Origin: a virus
Taxonomy: Duplodnaviria > Heunggongvirae > Uroviricota > Caudoviricetes
DNA length: 11,546 bases
Strand: one strand, 5' to 3'
IMG/VR virus record: IMGVR_UViG_2703718868_000005
Position 1 is the stretch's first letter. Each line of letters opens with the position of its first letter. The notes beneath the pieces are model-generated. The model did not search any database, was not told where the DNA came from, and saw only the letters and a program-made list of their open reading frames with translations. Of the stretch, positions 3,587-10,821 are shown one piece after another. The position numbers and the translations under genes are program-made.

Positions 3587-3814
3587 TTATAGCTGCTTCT
3601 GAATATCATCAACAGGTAATCCTGCCAACTCTCTTACCTCAGAAAGAAGAGAAAGGCTTACAACAACCTCATTACTTCGCATAACAAAACCACATTGAAA
3701 AGAACCATCACTGTTTCTGTAAACAACAACCGGGCGCATGCTCTCATAAAACCCCGGGATCAAACTGGCTGGGATTTTCACAACACCTCCTGACGTAAAG
3801 GAAATGAAATGCAT
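3587..3814 (-). CDS. Hypothetical small protein with an AbrB/MazE/SymE-like motif (GGVVKIPASLIPGF...SDGSF)
   Basis: 75 codons from ATG 3812-3814; ORF-track frame starts at GTG 3859. The motif resembles swapped-hairpin (AbrB-fold) proteins. Occupies the position of rem in K-12 Qin. Similarity not verified. Confidence 0.4.
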   Translation of the reverse strand: MHFISFTSGGVVKIPASLIPGFYESMRPVVVYRNSDGSFQCGFVMRSNEVVVSLSLLSEVRELAGLPVDDIQKQL

Positions 3815-3979
3815 TATCGCTTCTCTCGGACTATAACCATGAAAAGAGACGCATTTCACTCAGTAAATCTGAGGATTTTATGCGCAAGAACAATGACTTT
3901 TTCTGTCTGCCGTTTATACAATCTGAATTACGTCTGTTTTTTGAACACCGATAAATCAGCAAGCATTCTCAAATAAAGA

Positions 3980-4037
3980 TTGCCTCCATAGTCCACATGG
4001 TGTAACACTATGTGTTATATAAAATGCAGAGGCAGGT
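3980..4037 (+). promoter_or_regulatory. Putative promoter/operator of the type II TA operon
   Basis: TTGCCT -35-like element (3980-3985), TATAAA -10-like element near 4018-4023 and an imperfect inverted repeat GTAACAC-N3-GTGTTAT (4002-4018) lie just upstream of the toxin SD GAGG. Typical site for antitoxin autoregulation. Confidence 0.35.
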
Positions 4038-4410
4038 ATGCGAATTTTCAAAAACGCCTGGTTTGAACGTTTCGCCCGAAAACATCGGATTTCCGATAAA
4101 TCGCTGCGCAAAATCGTGGAACAGGCCGATAAGGGGGATCATATCCGCAAATTTGGGTAGTGGTGTCATTAAACAAAGATTAGCCCGAAGTGGTGGCGGA
4201 AAATCAGGCGGTTACCGGACAATAATTTTTTACCGCGTTGCAGAAAAAGCCTTTTTCATCTACGCATACGCAAAGAATGAACGAGAGAATATCACTGCTA
4301 TAGAGGAAAATGCTTTTCGAAAAGCCGCTCCCCATGTCCTCAATCTTACTGATGAACAGCTGGCACAATTGATTCAACAAGGCCAGTTCACGGAGGTACC
4401 CAATGAGTAA
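4038..4410 (+). pseudogene. RelE/ParE-superfamily (HigB-2-like) toxin gene, frameshifted at a G5 run (4133-4137)
   Basis: Frame from ATG 4038 gives MRIFKNAWFERFARKHRISDKSLRKIVEQADKG, then a TAG at 4158. The rest of the toxin (IISANLGSGVIKQRLARSGGGKSGGYRTIIFYR...FFIYAYAKNERENIT) continues in the +1 frame to the stop at 4408-4410. Removing one G restores a single ORF of about 123 aa. Confidence 0.7.
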
Positions 4411-4720
4411 AAATTACCGCAGTGATGCACTTGCATCTGTACATGAAATGATGGAGTCACTCCATGATATCGGTGCAATCACAAAACAAACTATGCGCGA
4501 ATTCGATGAAACTTGTCTTCAGCCTGCGCCGGTAATGTCTCCGGAAAGGATCCGTGCACTGCGAGAACGAGAGCATCTGTCTCAACCTGTTTTTGCCAGA
4601 TACCTCAACGTCAGTAAAAACCTGATATCAGACTGGGAACGAGGAGTGAAACGCCCGGGAGGTGCAGCTCTTCGGCTTCTTTCAGTTGTCGAGAAAAACG
4701 GGATCCAGGTAATATCCTGA
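4403..4720 (+). CDS. HTH-type antitoxin (HigA-2-like) partner of the upstream toxin
   Basis: 105 aa. ATG overlaps the toxin stop (ATGAGTAA) and SD GGAGG sits 6 nt upstream. Motifs SQPVFARYLNVS...DWERG...PGGAALRLL match antitoxins paired with HigB-2-type toxins. Confidence 0.85.
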   Translation: MSKNYRSDALASVHEMMESLHDIGAITKQTMREFDETCLQPAPVMSPERIRALREREHLSQPVFARYLNVSKNLISDWERGVKRPGGAALRLLSVVEKNGIQVIS

Positions 4721-4822: not shown

Positions 4823-4978
4823 TTACTCCTCAGGTTCGTAAGCTGTGAAGACAGCGACCTCCGTCTGGCCGGTTCGGATTCGTACCTCGCAGAGGTCTTT
4901 CCTCGTTACCAGTGCCGTCACTATGACGGTTAAACAGATGACAATCAGGGCGATTAACATCGCCTTTTGCTGCTTCAT
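4823..4978 (-). CDS. hokD: Hok-family type I membrane toxin (HokD/RelF-like)
   Basis: 51 aa, MKQQKAMLIALIVICLTVIVTALVTRKDLCEVRIRTGQTEVAVFTAYEPEE, matching HokD/RelF as I recall it. SD AAGGAG upstream. An in-frame upstream ATG at 5035 gives the 70-aa ORF-track frame, at the position of mok. Confidence 0.9.
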   Translation of the reverse strand: MKQQKAMLIALIVICLTVIVTALVTRKDLCEVRIRTGQTEVAVFTAYEPEE

Positions 4979-5026
4979 AGCCTGCTTCTCCTTGCCTTTC
5001 GGCACGTAAGAGGCTAACCTACATGT

Positions 5027-5095
5027 GCAAAGCATGAAATTGGCCTCAGATTAATGTTAAGCGTCCTGCAAGACGCGTAATGTTAACTGGGGCTT
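5027..5095 (+). ncRNA. Possible Sok-like antisense RNA opposite the hok leader (position approximate)
   Basis: Inferred from hok/sok locus architecture. Weak promoter-like TTGCCT-17-TAACCT at 4992-5020 and a hairpin GCGTC-CTGCAA-GACGC at 5061-5076 on the plus strand. Exact ends not determinable from sequence alone. Confidence 0.2.
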
Positions 5096-5249
5096 TTCTC
5101 TGTCTGCCTTACGGCGGCATGCCCGAGGCAGACAGCCTCAAGCACCCGCAGCAATTCTACTTAACTCTTCTTTCCCCGCAAATCATTTTATCCCCGATGG
5201 TAATGTTCTCCCGATATGGGAATTCCCATATCAAGGTTAACTCAATCGG

Positions 5250-5801
5250 TTAAAGCTCCATTAATTTTCCGGCCAGTTCATCTCGTGGCATTACCAACCA
5301 TCCGCGCGATTTAAGCAAAGCCAGGGCTTCTTCAACCGTCACCAGCTGGCCAGGCGCATCACTTCGGATGAAGGCGGTTTTATCGTCACGGATCGCCAGG
5401 TGAAAATCGATATTCATTTTTCCCATAGCCCGCTCTTTCTCGTACTGGTTGAAGTAACTGTCTTCGAGTTTTTCGAATACTTCCCACGCCTGATCGGTTT
5501 CGAGCATTTTTGCATGACGGGCTGCTCCGCGTTCTGTCCAGAGGATGAGAGTGCGGGTTTTGGGAGAAATTTTCACCTCATTTTGCGACTCGTTTAAAAC
5601 TAGTCGCAAATTTTTGAGCTCATCACCAACAGCTTTAAAGAAGTGTTTTCCCTCAATAAATCGAGATTTATTTTCATGGTGATTCTGCTGTATACGGATT
5701 GCTTCTGTTCCGTAAAGGCGGGCGAGTAACTCAGTTGTGATTACAGGAATCTGGTTATAAGTGACAGGGGAAAGGTTTTTGACAGTAACTTGAGTCGTCA
5801 T
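5250..5801 (-). CDS. ORF6N-domain (KilA-N/antirepressor-like) phage regulatory protein
   Basis: 183 aa. N-terminal motif IPVITTELLARLYGTEAIRIQQNHHENKSRFIEGKHFF and later LILWTERGAARHAKML resemble ORF6N antirepressor domains. SD GAGGG about 8 nt upstream of the ATG. Confidence 0.75.
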   Translation of the reverse strand: MTTQVTVKNLSPVTYNQIPVITTELLARLYGTEAIRIQQNHHENKSRFIEGKHFFKAVGDELKNLRLVLNESQNEVKISPKTRTLILWTERGAARHAKMLETDQAWEVFEKLEDSYFNQYEKERAMGKMNIDFHLAIRDDKTAFIRSDAPGQLVTVEEALALLKSRGWLVMPRDELAGKLMEL

Positions 5802-5962
5802 GATAACGCCCTCTGGTTGATGAATTTAACTATCACCACCTTCAGGTCTCAATCATCAGGTGGCGAGACGTACAGGGTTGAGACTACCGGATCAACCAAC
5901 CGGCCAGCCTTTCGGCTGCCCCATACGCCTCACCATAATTCAGATGTGCGTGCGCATACGAC

Positions 5963-5987
5963 AATAAAAAACACGCTCGCGGCGTGT
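5963..5987 (-). terminator. Rho-independent terminator ending the replication-side operon
   Basis: Minus strand reads ACACGC-CGCGA-GCGTGT followed by TTTTTATT. Confidence 0.6.
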
Positions 5988-6072
5988 GTCTGTCGCGGTT
6001 GAATATCCGGGGTCTCAATCCCGACGGTCAACTCGACCGTGCGGTGAATATAGCCCCGGATTAGTAATTACG

Positions 6073-7935: not shown

Positions 7936-8943
7936 CTACCCCCTGAAACCCGGCGGAATTTCGGTATCCGGTTCAGAAATATGATTCACGCAACGCTGCG
8001 CGGGACCACGCCACAGTCGAATAACCAGTTCATCCCATTTCTCACGGAGTTTTTCCGGGCTCTTGATGTTTTTTATCCAGAACGGATCCCGTTGTGCCCG
8101 GCTGAACATTTCGCAAATTTGTCTGTGACTTCTTCCATCCAGCATCCGCATTGTGCGCACGTCATTGGCCCACGCCGTCCAGTTGGGCTCTTTCGGTCGC
8201 GTGATCTCACCATCGTCACTGGCAGCCTGTTCGTACAGGTTTACAACCCGCCCCCAGATCCACTGCGCACATGTCAAATCCTCCCGGGTTCCCCACTGGC
8301 GTTTTTTCACGCTGAACACAACAGCATCAGGATGGCGGGTTAAAAACGCCTGTTCAGCCGTCAACTCGTCCGGTTGCGAAGCGTCCGGACAAGAGAGTTT
8401 TTTATTCTCTGTTGTATTCTCTGTTGTATTCTCTGTAGGATCATCGGGCCATTTTGACCTGATGACATTGGGCCGTTTTGAACCAATGGAACGTTTCATT
8501 TTGACCTCTTCCATCGTGTCATTTTGACCTGATGGAGTGGCGCATTTTGACCCGATGGATTCGTTCACTTTGCCATCATCTAAAAGCGCGCTATCGTAGT
8601 TAATTGTGTAAAAATTAGTCATATCACGCTTCGATTTATTGAGCTTTTCGCTACGCAAAAGCCCCAGCGCTTTCAGACTTGCAAACGCACGCTTTAACGT
8701 TGACTCTGACCAGAACGGAAACTGTTCCAGCCATTGTTCCGTTGTGTTGTAAATCCAGCGAACGCCATCACATTCCATGCCGGAACTGGTATCCCTCAAC
8801 CAGTAATGCAGTTGCTGCAACACAATGGCTTCGTTTAAACCAATCTTCATCGCCAGCTGTGTGTTTATAACCAGCGGGCGTTCAGCAAAAAGAAGGCTCA
8901 TAATTCCATCCGGCTTTTTGTTGGTACTGGTGACGATAGGCAC
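7936..8943 (-). CDS. Phage replication initiator (O-like), with origin iterons inside the coding sequence
   Basis: 335-aa frame; start is GTG at 8943 or ATG at 8901. N-terminal domain resembles phage replisome-organiser proteins. Iteron array and AT-rich stretch lie within the gene. Followed by the DnaC-like gene. Confidence 0.85.
   Translation of the reverse strand: MPIVTSTNKKPDGIMSLLFAERPLVINTQLAMKIGLNEAIVLQQLHYWLRDTSSGMECDGVRWIYNTTEQWLEQFPFWSESTLKRAFASLKALGLLRSEKLNKSKRDMTNFYTINYDSALLDDGKVNESIGSKCATPSGQNDTMEEVKMKRSIGSKRPNVIRSKWPDDPTENTTENTTENKKLSCPDASQPDELTAEQAFLTRHPDAVVFSVKKRQWGTREDLTCAQWIWGRVVNLYEQAASDDGEITRPKEPNWTAWANDVRTMRMLDGRSHRQICEMFSRAQRDPFWIKNIKSPEKLREKWDELVIRLWRGPAQRCVNHISEPDTEIPPGFRG
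8403..8436. repeat. Tandem 12-bp repeat TATTCTCTGTTG, about 2.8 copies, in-frame within the initiator gene (encodes TENTTENTTEN)
   Basis: Direct repeats at 8403-8414 and 8415-8426, with a partial third copy at 8427-8436. Confidence 0.8.
8450..8580. repeat. Iteron array (candidate prophage ori): five to six copies of CATTTTGACCYGATGG-like repeats
   Basis: Copies near 8450, 8474 (degenerate), 8497, 8520, 8543 and 8567 (degenerate), spaced about 23 bp, followed by an AT-richer stretch at 8581-8640. Arrangement resembles ori-lambda inside O. Confidence 0.6.
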
Positions 8944-9403
8944 GCTTGAAAGCGATTGCTTTTTCTATAAGCTCGTCTGTCTCACGTTCCACAACAGCTG
9001 GATCTGCAAAAAGCAGCCTGGACTCCACCACATCGCCATATTCTTTGTTTAACCCGGCAATCATGTACGTAATGCTTTTTCCGTCAGTAATTTCGCGGTA
9101 CAACCTGAAATCACTAATCCGGATAGCCTCCATAATTGCCGGAATCAGCGCCGTGAATTTTTCACGCTTATCCCTGGTGTCGATAGCCTTCCAGCGTTCG
9201 AATATCTTCACCCGGTTAACGCCAAGCGCACGCTGATCAACCCCGCCATCATCAAGCGTGACACGCTGAACATCGATGTTCGGGCGTTCCTGTAGAGCCC
9301 AGAAGGCTTCAGTAATTAATATCGTCGCCTGCTCCTGCGTCATTCCTGGTCGGCTTATCCAGGCATCCAGGGCATCGCGTGCCTGCTCAAGGGTGATTTT
9401 CAT
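8882..9403 (-). CDS. YdaT-like protein (cII-position regulator of Rac-type immunity regions)
   Basis: 173 aa. ATG at 9401-9403 overlaps the end of the Cro-like gene. Family assignment rests on position and loose motif resemblance (ALIPAIMEAI). Confidence 0.65.
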   Translation of the reverse strand: MKITLEQARDALDAWISRPGMTQEQATILITEAFWALQERPNIDVQRVTLDDGGVDQRALGVNRVKIFERWKAIDTRDKREKFTALIPAIMEAIRISDFRLYREITDGKSITYMIAGLNKEYGDVVESRLLFADPAVVERETDELIEKAIAFKRAYRHQYQQKAGWNYEPSFC

Positions 9404-9614
9404 TGTTCAACCGCCCCGCCCGCTTCGTCTTACGATATTCGTCATAAACTTTGGGGTCATACTGAAGCTCCCCGCCGGATGCCTCTTGCAGGCGCATCGC
9501 GCGACCTTCAGGGACCAGTTTCCCCCATTGAGAAACAGCAGATGGATCAACACCAGCAGCTTTCGCTACTTTGGCTTTCGTCCCATAAAAATTAATTACG
9601 TCTGATTTAAACAT
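9387..9614 (-). CDS. Cro/YdaS-like HTH transcriptional regulator
   Basis: 75 codons from ATG 9612-9614 with SD GGAGGGG upstream. HTH FYGTKAKVAKAAGVDPSAVSQWGK. Divergent from the repressor gene. ORF-track frame starts at TTG 9641. Confidence 0.75.
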   Translation of the reverse strand: MFKSDVINFYGTKAKVAKAAGVDPSAVSQWGKLVPEGRAMRLQEASGGELQYDPKVYDEYRKTKRAGRLNNENHP

Positions 9615-9691
9615 CACCCCTCCAGGCTTGAGTTTTCTCAAAAGTAATCACCCAAGGAATCTCAAGCCAAGGGTTATTAAGATATCTAAAT
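9615..9691. promoter_or_regulatory. Divergent promoter/operator region of the immunity switch
   Basis: 77-bp intergenic region with inverted repeats TTGAG-TTTT-CTCAA (9628-9641) and GGCTTGAG (9626-9633) / CTCAAGCC (9661-9668). Confidence 0.5.
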
Positions 9692-10099
9692 ATGAACGAG
9701 AAAACTTTAGGTCAACGAATTAGAGAAAGACGCAAACAGGTTGGTTTAAGTCAAAACGATTTAAGCAAAGCTGCTGGTGTATCTGGCTCATCAATTTCAC
9801 TATGGGAAAGCGACCATACAGCCCCGCGCGGGCAAAATTTGCATCGCCTGGCTGAGGTATTGCAATGTTCACCAACTTGGATACTGTTTGGTGACGAGGA
9901 TAAAACACCAGATCCACCAGTTGCACTCAACAGCGCCTTAGACTTATCGGAAGATGAGTCGGAGATGTTGCGATTGTATCGCGCACTTCCAAAATCAGAG
10001 CAGCAAGCACAGATCAGCGAACTCCGTGCCCGCGTTGAGAATTTTAATCGCCTATTCACCGAGCTACTAGAAGCTCGCAAACGTAACAAACATCAATAA
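9692..10099 (+). CDS. dicA: DicA-like prophage repressor (XRE-family HTH)
   Basis: 135 aa. HTH QNDLSKAAGVSGSSISLWE. Segments LQCSPTWILFGDEDK and RARVENFNRLFTELLEARKRN resemble E. coli DicA as I recall it. Confidence 0.85.
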   Translation: MNEKTLGQRIRERRKQVGLSQNDLSKAAGVSGSSISLWESDHTAPRGQNLHRLAEVLQCSPTWILFGDEDKTPDPPVALNSALDLSEDESEMLRLYRALPKSEQQAQISELRARVENFNRLFTELLEARKRNKHQ

Positions 10100-10116
10100 C
10101 CCCCTTCACAAAATTT

Positions 10117-10150
10117 AAAGCCTTACATTTCAATGTATTGGCTTTGTTTT
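10117..10150 (+). terminator. Hairpin with T-rich tail downstream of the repressor gene
   Basis: AAAGCC (10117-10122) pairs with GGCTTT (10140-10145), with an inner stem ACATT/AATGT, followed by GTTTTGC. Confidence 0.35.
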
Positions 10151-10154
10151 GCAT

Positions 10155-10180
10155 TAAATATTGAGCTTTCTCATCAAAAA
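10155..10180 (+). promoter_or_regulatory. Operator-like motif TTGAG-CTTT-CTCA upstream of the ydfA-like gene
   Basis: Nearly the same inverted-repeat motif as in the 9615-9691 intergenic region, located at 10161-10173. Confidence 0.35.
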
Positions 10181-10288
10181 CACTTGGCCAGGCGCCATGA
10201 GAAAACCAAATTACAATCCATCAAGACACCGCACGGTGTTCTCAGCAAACAGTTCCGCTACCCGGCGTTAAGGGCAAATGAGGTCAAC

Positions 10289-10441
10289 ATGGATACACTC
10301 AATCTTGGCAACAACGAATCTCTGGTATGCGGTGTGTTCCCTAACCAGGACGGCACGTTTACCGCGATGACGTATACCAGAAGCAAAACGTTTAAAACTG
10401 AAGCTGGCGCGCATCGCTGGTTAGCCAGAAACACTGACTGA
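10289..10441 (+). CDS. ydfA: YdfA-like small protein (first gene of a dicB-operon-like unit)
   Basis: 50 codons from ATG 10289 with SD GAGG 5 nt upstream: MDTLNLGNNESLVCGVFPNQDGTFTAMTYTRSKTFKTEAGAHRWLARNTD. The longer ORF-track frame from 10133 runs through the terminator hairpin. Confidence 0.6.
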   Translation: MDTLNLGNNESLVCGVFPNQDGTFTAMTYTRSKTFKTEAGAHRWLARNTD

Positions 10442-10452
10442 TGAGGTTGACG

Positions 10453-10821
10453 ATGGAATTTAAAGATTTACCAGTACCATTCCAGGATATGGCAGCGAAT
10501 ATAGTTCGTTCTCAACTGGCGACTCTTGACCTGAGTACCGTAGAAAAAGAAACCATCGACAATATATCCCATAATGTGCGTAATGCCTTTATCAAGCTGT
10601 ACGAAGAGAAGCTGAGTTCTGAAAACAAAGATTATTCACCTAAATTCACCCCACACCCAGGTGGAGTGAGTGAGATTTATCATGAAACAATGGTTAAAGC
10701 ACTACGTATGCAAATAGCCGAACTTGAACATAAATTAAATTTAGTTAGTAAGTGCCAAAATCAGCACAAGGCAAAAGGGTTGCACTTTCATCATAAGGGC
10801 AAACAAAAATGTGAGCATTAA
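10453..10821 (+). CDS. Hypothetical protein in the ydfB/ydfC position
   Basis: ATG at 10453 with SD GAGG 6 nt upstream. The low-complexity basic C-terminal tail overlaps a convergent gene. Confidence 0.55.
   Translation: MEFKDLPVPFQDMAANIVRSQLATLDLSTVEKETIDNISHNVRNAFIKLYEEKLSSENKDYSPKFTPHPGGVSEIYHETMVKALRMQIAELEHKLNLVSKCQNQHKAKGLHFHHKGKQKCEH

Follow-up and report, generated by a model that had tools for sequence, protein, structure and literature searches.

Two promoter regions flank the repressor gene of the prophage analysed here, and each carries a similar short palindrome. This raises the question of whether one repressor recognises one operator sequence at both promoters, and, if so, to which known immunity system such a switch would belong. 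An earlier note on this DNA had proposed a shared recognition sequence, with copies at 9628-9641 and 10161-10173, and both are present in the window, that is, the whole stretch of 11,546 nucleotides that was analysed, as TTGAGTTTTCTCAA (9628-9641) and TTGAGCTTTCTCAT (10161-10174). The window, an IMG/VR contig, is part of a lambdoid E. coli prophage, and it is 99.8% identical to the prophage adjoining ompW in strain CFIAFB20190157. In our view TTGAG-N4-CTCAA is, with a probability of about 0.88, the operator of a DicA-like repressor at both promoters, in a heteroimmune member of the DicA/DicC immunity system of Qin, which resembles immC of P22. This operator reading is carried by comparative evidence, namely, the invariance of the half-sites, their covariation with the regulators, and their location within one swapped cassette.

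Gene order and regulators of the immunity region

The repressor gene (plus strand) and the cro-like gene (minus strand) are divergent and separated by 77 bp (Table 1). The early 'rightward' operon, on the minus strand, consists of the Cro-like gene, the YdaT-family gene and replication genes, with the antiterminator Q gene further on. On the other side, the ydfA-like gene is the first of an operon at the predicted sites O1 and O2, which continues past ydfA with dicB, an exonuclease gene, xis and int in the 99.8% identical genome. Since this ydfA...dicB-exo-xis-int operon lies downstream of the repressor gene, the region after that gene is the positional equivalent of lambda PL/OL, and lambda OR has its counterpart in the 77 bp that precede the gene.

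Table 1. Positions of genes, predicted operators and transcription signals in and around the immunity region.
Feature	Position	Strand	Sequence or characteristics
YdaT-family cII-like gene	8882-9403	-	Part of the early 'rightward' operon
Cro-like gene, DicC homologue	9387-9614	-	75 aa; HTH-encoding 5' third within the immunity cassette
Immunity cassette, ~700 bp	about 9520-10220		Encodes the HTH portions of Cro and repressor and contains every operator site
Predicted Oc-equivalent operator	9628-9641		TTGAGTTTTCTCAA; perfect 5-4-5 palindrome TTGAG-TTTT-CTCAA
Inferred cro promoter	9641-9670	-	-10 TACTTT (9646-9641), 18-nt spacer, -35 TTGGCT (9670-9665)
Tentative middle operator, Om-equivalent	9651-9664		CCAAGGAATCTCAA; placed by position
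Predicted Oa-equivalent operator	9677-9690		TTAAGATATCTAAA; 2 mismatches to the motif
Immunity repressor gene, DicA homologue	9692-10099	+	135 aa; P22 c2-like N-terminal HTH domain
Probable repressor-gene terminator, hairpin and T-run	10117-10151	+	Fold -13.2 kcal/mol, z -3.6
Predicted O1 operator	10161-10174		TTGAGCTTTCTCAT; TTGAGTTTTCTCAT in most relatives
Inferred dicBp-equivalent promoter	10184-10212	+	-35 TTGGCC (10184-10189), 17-nt spacer, -10 CAAATT (10207-10212)
Predicted O2 operator	10197-10210		ATGAGAAAACCAAA; ATGAGAAAACTAAA in relatives; fills the spacer and overlaps the -10
ydfA-like gene (DUF1391)	10289-10441	+	PF07151, 102 bits

The three regulators were assigned to families as follows. 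First, the repressor (PF01381, HTH_3) has the same length as K-12 DicA, with 55% identity over the full 135 residues, and its N-terminal domain matches that of P22 c2 (PDB 1adr/2r1j, E 2e-15). It lacks an S24 peptidase domain, its family matches covering the HTH alone, and its C-terminus is of the DicA type; DicA itself has been described as having no cleavage site, its repression being lifted by the antirepressor Rem (PMC10448788). Second, the Cro-like protein belongs to the P22_Cro family (PF14549, 63.2 bits against a cut-off of 30.2), matches P22 Cro (PDB 1rzs, E 7e-12), and is 72% identical to K-12 DicC, with the divergence confined to residues 1-32, the HTH part. Its score against YdaS_toxin, 22.2 bits, falls under the cut-off of 30. 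Third, the protein at the cII position is of the YdaT family (PF06254, 26.6 bits against a cut-off of 21).

These assignments do not agree with the description of the region, in the earlier note, as a DicA repressor joined to a Rac-like YdaS/YdaT unit. The Cro is of the P22_Cro/DicC type, and Qin of K-12 also has a YdaT-family remnant, ydfX, directly after dicC. Thus, DicA-DicC-YdaT is the normal layout of this phage group, and a YdaT-family gene is no marker of Rac origin because Qin holds the same family next to dicC.

A promoter and terminator consensus scanner made no calls within 9300-10500 at its threshold, and the promoter hexamers were therefore obtained from alignment to relatives, and the terminator from its fold. 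All promoter hexamers and start sites are predictions made in this way; binding, the order of affinities and the ligand of Oa, which are discussed below, are likewise predicted from sequence. The hairpin with its T-run is kept in same-type loci and is the probable intrinsic terminator of the repressor gene.

Predicted operators between the repressor and cro genes

In the intergenic region, Oc and Oa are clear and invariant, and a middle site has one good half-site only. The position of Oc matches that of K-12 Oc (TTGTTAGTCATAACTAACAA), and the site is near-invariant among the 64 distinct sequences that share this immunity type, with variable positions on either side. The hexamers of the cro promoter were read from the sequence and aligned with the layout of K-12 PdicC; its -35 is TTGGCT in the window as compared with TTGACT in relatives. 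The predicted Oc covers the putative cro start, at about 9634, together with the end of the -10, so that a repressor bound there would block the cro promoter, as it does in K-12.

The Oa site ends 1 nt before the ATG of the repressor and overlaps the only plausible -10 of a repressor promoter, TAAGAT (9678-9683). It is invariant across the 64 same-type sequences, it is the third-best match of a position weight matrix (PWM) although it was left out of the training of that matrix, and it is identical to the P22 operator core TTAAGATATCTTAA at 13 of 14 positions. Upstream of the repressor start there is neither a Shine-Dalgarno sequence nor a good -35, which suggests a weak, probably activator-dependent promoter and a leaderless or nearly leaderless mRNA with a predicted start at about 9690-9692. 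In this the putative repressor transcript can be likened to that of lambda PRM, and a leaderless mRNA has also been suggested for dicA (PMC3441716).

The middle operator is tentative. The Om candidate lies within the spacer of the cro promoter, its centre being 23 bp from that of Oc and 26 bp from that of Oa, and it combines one good half-site (CTCAA) and a poor one with moderate conservation; in the PWM scan it is outside the top 15. This site bears on another claim of the earlier note, which had seen half-sites, GGCTTGAG (9625-9632) and CTCAAGCC (9661-9668), flanking the palindrome. Both sequences are present, but their conserved parts are TTGAG and CTCAA only, the GGC/GCC extensions being specific to the lineage of the window, since relatives have AAG, AAA or ATA before TTGAG, and CTCAAGTC. 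Because the GGC before TTGAG and the C after CTCAAG are variable, these 8-nt sequences are no conserved element, and CTCAA at 9661-9665 is better understood as belonging to a weak middle site of its own, of which it would form the right half.

Two further candidates for extra operators were set aside. One is GAGAAAACT at 9698-9706, in the first codons of the repressor; the other, TTGAGAATTTTAAT at 10035-10048, codes for the conserved RVENFN. Their conservation is uninformative because both are coding sequence.

Predicted operators and promoter upstream of ydfA

Upstream of ydfA, O1, which may be read as TTGAGCTTTCTCA(T) at 10161-10173/4, has 1 mismatch to TTGAGN4CTCAA. It lies at about -52, with 9 nt between it and the -35 of the promoter of the ydfA/dicB operon, and its positional equivalent in K-12 is TTAGCTATAGCATA at dicBp. 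The second site on this side, O2 (10197-10210), had been missed in the earlier note. It pairs with O1 as an inverted repeat, it is near-invariant, and it is the fourth match of the PWM; the equivalent site of K-12 is TTAGTCATGGCTAA. Together, O1 and O2 bracket the -35 of a conserved promoter. As O2 overlaps the predicted core promoter, it is the site most likely to cause repression. The distance between the centres of O1 and O2 is 36 bp, or about 3.4 helical turns, and offers no obvious phasing for cooperative binding.

The hexamers of this dicBp-equivalent promoter are conserved between hypervariable spacers, and they align with K-12 dicBp, TTGACC-17-TAATCT. Relatives and functional phages have TTGACC/G-17-TAAATT at this position; the functional phages include mEp460_ev081 and HannyBb, where the same sites surround a near-consensus TTGACG-17-TAAATT. 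The predicted start is at about 10219-10220, and the transcribed leader that follows is conserved between the window and K-12.

The location of O1, 10 nt past the hairpin and T-run, together with its inverted repeat with 10197-10211, which could pair in RNA, might indicate that the downstream copy (10161-10174) acts in RNA or termination, either as part of a terminator or as an attenuator of read-through into ydfA. We consider this very improbable. The conservation follows a promoter pattern, with TTGAC(C/G) kept between the arms, TAAATT 17 nt further on and other bases free; the K-12 equivalent is the mapped dicBp (PMC10448788); and the arms match the intergenic Oc, not merely each other.

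The motif within the window and within its immunity type

Taken by itself, the repeat within the window gives a modest, weakly significant signal. The motif search that the earlier note had proposed, TTGAGN4CTCAA with up to 1 mismatch, returned 2 matches in the window against 0.39 expected, a count reached by 10 of 200 shuffles and thus weakly above chance; with up to 2 mismatches there were 3 matches, below the expectation of 5.5, each of them located in one of the two intergenic regions on either side of the repressor gene. When Oc was compared with the 75-nt promoter region, the best agreement was 9/10, which was equalled by 51 of 20000 shuffles. In a PWM scan of the 11.5-kb window, the top four matches all lie in the two regulatory regions. 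It is the comparative data that make the motif signal strong.

For this comparison, 81 loci of the same immunity type, which came from IMG/VR contigs, from two genomes and from two contigs of the species-genome set, were reduced to 64 distinct sequences. None of 40 half-site positions is polymorphic (minor allele at least 5%), as compared with 24 of 57 spacer positions (Fisher, 3e-7), and the four strong sites stand out as invariant islands among hypervariable spacers. The central 4 bp of the operators, which are A/T-rich, are conserved too, and this fits the indirect read-out known for P22 c2 (PMC5175364).

Covariation of operators and regulators among heteroimmune relatives

Heteroimmune relatives were gathered in E. 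coli genomes and in a set with one genome for each species. Each type, including those of K-12, T7Express, O157, Citrobacter, Rahnella, E. whittamii and others, is characterised by a palindrome of its own, which occupies the same places in each of the two regions. The T7Express type has TTAGACTTTTCTAA on the cro side, and TTAGATCAATCTAA and TTAGGTTATTCTAA on the ydfA side; the O157 type has TTAGATTTTCCTAA, and TTAGGTTTTTCTAC and TTAGGCTATTCTAA, respectively; and the E. whittamii and LSJC7 types have TAAC-N4-GTTA on both sides. In Buttiauxella, which belongs to the helix class of the window, the cro-side site CTGAGTTTTCTCAA recurs as an identical 14-mer on the ydfA side.

We then arranged 14 representative DicA-like loci in a covariation matrix, using position-anchored sites and their 10 outer positions. 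Agreement of Oc with the downstream promoter region of its own locus is 9-10/10 in 11 of the 14 loci and 7-8 in the other three, as compared with 6-7/10 against the promoter regions of other recognition-helix classes, which makes the matrix block-diagonal. The motif changes along with the recognition helix of the repressor across these loci. None of 100000 permutations reached the observed diagonal sum, a p-value that overstates independence because related types share ancestry. Two other procedures were abandoned: letting a program select the best palindrome upstream of each repressor gave spurious sites in half of the loci, hence the position-anchored sites, and the best 14-mers shared between the two regions, compared all against all, had too high a background (10-12/14).

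The same relatives reveal how the region is mosaic. In a sliding comparison with the K-12, T7Express-type and O157-type loci, identity stays near 90% as far as about 9500-9540, drops to 25-70% over the HTH part of Cro, the intergenic DNA, the repressor gene and the promoter downstream of it, and returns to 97-100% exactly at 10220, just past the -10. The actual mosaicism is thus a swapped immunity cassette between flanks that are about 90-100% identical, and its right edge coincides with the predicted transcription start of the ydfA operon. As both regulatory regions lie inside one swapped block, both operator sets travel with the two regulators, as in a classical imm region.

These data allow a first alternative to be weighed, namely, that two A/T-rich intergenic regions share a short palindrome by chance, with no common binding protein. 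The weak enrichment within the window and the high background of the 14-mer comparisons are what such coincidence would look like, but it becomes extremely improbable once it has to account for half-sites that form invariant islands in 64 sequences, for a motif that every heteroimmune type has exchanged for another in both regions at once, and for site positions that match the published K-12 operators. The claim that one recognition sequence is used at both regions is thereby upheld, as a conserved island within the type that is replaced as a pair between types.

A second alternative accepts the operators as real and assigns them, mainly or exclusively, to the Cro-like protein or to another factor such as YdaT. 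Because the swapped cassette includes the HTH of Cro as well, covariation does not tell Cro and repressor apart, and in four types that share the Cro helix SAVSQW Oa is constant while the Oc sites differ. In K-12, however, both the binding of Oc and the repression of dicBp are due to DicA (PMC3441716, PMC10448788), and among types with the same Cro helix Oc varies with the helix of the repressor. As for YdaT, it is conserved between heteroimmune types that have different motifs, and the published CP-933P YdaT site, TTGATTN6AATCAA, is different in form and not enriched in the window (7 matches against 8.3 expected). We therefore regard a main ligand other than the repressor as unlikely.

The behaviour of Oa may point to two operator dialects, with the repressor helix matched to TTGAG-type sites and Cro to a P22-like Oa. 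In the window, the repressor helix SGSSISLWES goes with Oc, O1 and O2 of the TTGAG type, and Cro keeps the P22-Cro-like helix SAVSQW; in the four related types, Oa and this Cro helix are constant, and Oc and the repressor helix change. Shared ancestry could give the same constant pattern, and for this reason we hold the two-dialect reading to be doubtful, with about one chance in four. If it were true, the specificities of repressor and Cro would be partly separated, beyond differences in the order of affinities on one family of sites, and the DicA-like family would offer a natural series linking positions 32, 33 and 37 of P22 c2 to operator bases 3 and 12.

Comparison with known immunity systems

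The preferred reading, a DicA-like repressor acting at both promoters, finds its closest precedent in Qin. In K-12, DicA binds the 20-bp inverted repeat Oc in vivo, a single base change abolishing binding, and this Oc adjoins dicC and overlaps the dicC -10 (PMC3441716). DicA also represses dicBp, upstream of ydfA, and operator-like sequences have been described in the interval between dicA and dicC as well as at dicBp (PMC10448788), so that the proposed sharing agrees with the published Qin operators in both places (PMC10448788, PMC3441716). The window and Qin have the same order of a ydaT-family gene, cro/dicC, repressor/dicA and then ydfA...dicB, a strong palindrome next to the cro start, and two sites that bracket the -35 upstream of ydfA. 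Comparison with the known DicA operators, another suggestion of the earlier note, thus gives the same positions, but a different sequence. The Oc of DicA is TTGTTAGT-CATA-ACTAACAA (TTAGT-CATA-ACTAA), as compared with TTGAG-N4-CTCAA, and none of the window sites is an operator of the K-12 type, TTAGT-N4-ACTAA. At dicBp, K-12 has TTAGCTATAGCATA ... TTGACC ... TTAGTCATGGCTAA-TCT, and the window TTGAGCTTTCTCAT ... TTGGCC ... ATGAGAAAACCAAA-TT. Outer positions of the window Oc agree with the K-12 promoter region at 6/10, and those of K-12 Oc with the region of the window at 7/10. Given that the recognition helices also differ (VSGSSISLWES in the window repressor, ISHVSVSQWER in K-12 DicA), the two systems are expected to be heteroimmune. 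A further difference is that the YdaT-family and replication genes are intact in the window, K-12 having only the ydfX remnant. It should also be noted that K-12 Om and Oa were not bound by DicA when tested singly (PMC3441716), and the three-site picture may thus overstate what the repressor binds.

The likeness to P22 immC concerns the 5-4-5 operator geometry with its A/T-rich centre, the homologous repressor N-terminal domain and Cro, and the use of the same operators at the rightward and leftward early promoters. The P22 consensus, ATTTAAGATATCTTAAAT, has TTAAG half-sites around 4 bp, TTAAG-N4-CTTAA (PMC5175364), and therefore differs from the TTGAG of the window by one base per half-site. 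In P22 c2, the operator is read by V33, which lies among the thymine methyls of TTAA, and by Q37, nearby (PMC5175364); N32, V33 and Q37 of c2 are G, S and L in the window repressor, changes that would fit an altered specificity. Unlike c2, with its S24 autocleavage domain, the window repressor has a short DicA-type C-terminal domain.

The logic of lambda OR/OL recurs in the window, with putative repressor and cro promoters that diverge over a proposed set of three sites, the middle one tentative, another set of predicted operators at the leftward promoter beyond the repressor gene, and a repressor start codon that lacks a Shine-Dalgarno sequence. The window differs from lambda in that its operator sequence is unrelated, its sites are of 14 bp instead of 17 bp, its leftward promoter has only two clear sites, 36 bp apart, and no N gene is evident downstream. 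Finally, the RacR (PaaR2)-YdaS-YdaT module of Rac and CP-933P resembles the window in having a YdaT-family, cII-like gene after a cro-like gene, and differs from it in that the Cro of the window is not of the YdaS family and its repressor is of the DicA/P22 c2 type.

A model for the switch

From these comparisons we propose the following mechanism. A dimer of the 135-aa repressor would recognise the 14-bp TTGAG-N4-CTCAA through its two 5-bp half-sites, as P22 c2 does on TTAAG-N4-CTTAA. Oc would be the strongest site, and repressor bound there would shut off cro-ydaT-replication transcription. The weak middle site and Oa, which lies over the putative repressor promoter and next to the start codon, may complete a three-site switch like that of lambda OR. 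At the other promoter, the same repressor at O1 and O2 would silence ydfA...dicB-exo-xis-int, with O2 occluding the core promoter. The Cro-like protein most likely uses the same set of sites with another preference, plausibly Oa first, which would turn the repressor off.

Since the repressor has no autocleavage domain, induction is expected to proceed through an antirepressor and not through RecA. At the position equivalent to K-12 rem, no Rem-like antirepressor could be assigned, the ORF of the window at 3587-3859 matching Rem with an E of only 0.27.

Significance of the operator assignment

The sharing of operators at both promoters is ordinary lambdoid design, known from Qin and P22, and, as both the principle and the protein family are known, the understanding of such switches is unchanged. 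What may be new here is the operator word that is specific to this immunity group; the 14-mer was looked for in the literature on both strands, and none of the papers searched contained it. A predicted operator sequence and promoter layout are thereby assigned to a common group of E. coli prophages, in which the predicted operators would control the toxic dicB/dicF operon as well as the lytic genes. The assignment should aid the prediction of co-immune prophages and the annotation of such regions, and it adds natural pairs of repressor helix and operator for specificity studies of P22 c2-like HTH proteins. The immunity group is found in roughly 800 of 5426 complete genomes, 797 having a match that spans 80% or more of the 1,071-bp query. 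The functional phages mEp460_ev081 and HannyBb also belong to it.

Promoter changes in the window lineage and the sequences around the predicted operators

Comparison with relatives showed that, in the window lineage, both inferred promoters of the immunity cassette, that of the cro-like gene and that of the ydfA operon, carry substitutions away from consensus. The −35 elements read TTGGCT (9665-9670) and TTGGCC (10184-10189), respectively, whereas TTGACT and TTGACC/G occur at these positions in nearly all relatives as well as in the functional phages; and the −10 element at 10207-10212 is CAAATT, versus TAAATT. A further T-to-C change lies at position 10166, in the centre of O1, a predicted operator of the ydfA promoter. 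In the 99.8% identical genome, the rusA and exonuclease genes are frameshifted. Judged from sequence comparison, the substitutions of the window lineage are possibly promoter-down changes of a decaying prophage.

Oa, the predicted operator at 9677-9690 (TTAAGATATCTAAA), is identical to the operator core of P22 (TTAAGATATCTTAA) at 13 of 14 positions. This site is common to four immunity types with a P22-Cro-like Cro helix (SAVSQW), among which the repressor helices and the sites at Oc, the predicted operator at 9628-9641, differ. Two operator-like words were also considered, namely, GAGAAAACT, found again at 9698-9706, where it spans repressor codons 3-5, and TTGAGAATTTTAAT at 10035-10048, which ranks fifth among the PWM hits and falls within the conserved RVENFN codons. 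Their location within the coding region makes a role as operators improbable for either word.

Beyond the operators, the transcribed leader of the ydfA operon (CATCAAGACACCGCACGGTGTTCTCAGCAAACAGTTCCGCTACCCGGCGTTAAGGG, 10221-10276) begins exactly where the immunity cassette ends, is 97-100% identical across all E. coli immunity types, K-12 included, and contains a small hairpin, CACCGCACGGTG. The hairpin and T-run that precede O1 (Table) are likely to form an intrinsic terminator, which would shield the ydfA promoter from read-through of the repressor gene; a simple terminator scan made no call at this position.

Accessory elements of the early operon and the nin-like region

The C4 and isrK RNAs, together with the ORF6N-domain gene, look like an antirepressor module within the early operon, resembling either P1 c4/ant or Salmonella isrK/anrP. 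Inactivation of the non-cleavable repressor may proceed via this putative module. In the nin-like region, the position of hokD and the RelE/ParE-family pair matches that of hokD with relBE in Qin of K-12.

Table. Elements located in the window outside the predicted operators.
Feature	Coordinates	Strand	Remarks
RelE/ParE-family toxin and HTH antitoxin pair	4012-4720	+	Adjacent to sok/hokD
hokD	4823-5035	-	Nin-like region, with sok RNA
sok RNA	4973-5147	-	117 bits; nin-like region, with hokD
ORF6N-domain gene	5250-5801	-	C4 and isrK RNAs directly upstream
C4 antisense RNA	5856-5940	-	Rfam, 69 bits
isrK RNA	5966-6040	-	Rfam, 51 bits
Hairpin, then T-run	10117-10151		Between repressor stop codon and O1

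Database records of relatives

Two genome contigs from MAGs labelled 'Bacillota bacterium' and 'Veillonella parvula' (L009 and L010) carry this E. coli-type immunity region, with a repressor identity of 96%, which most likely reflects metagenome binning contamination. Two annotations differ from the present reading and are probably mis-calls: the repressor of phage HannyBb (L112) is annotated at 561-1019, with its start 51 nt upstream, in the operator region, and in mEp460_ev081 (L111) a 38-aa minus-strand ORF (1097-1213) is annotated over the O1/O2 promoter.
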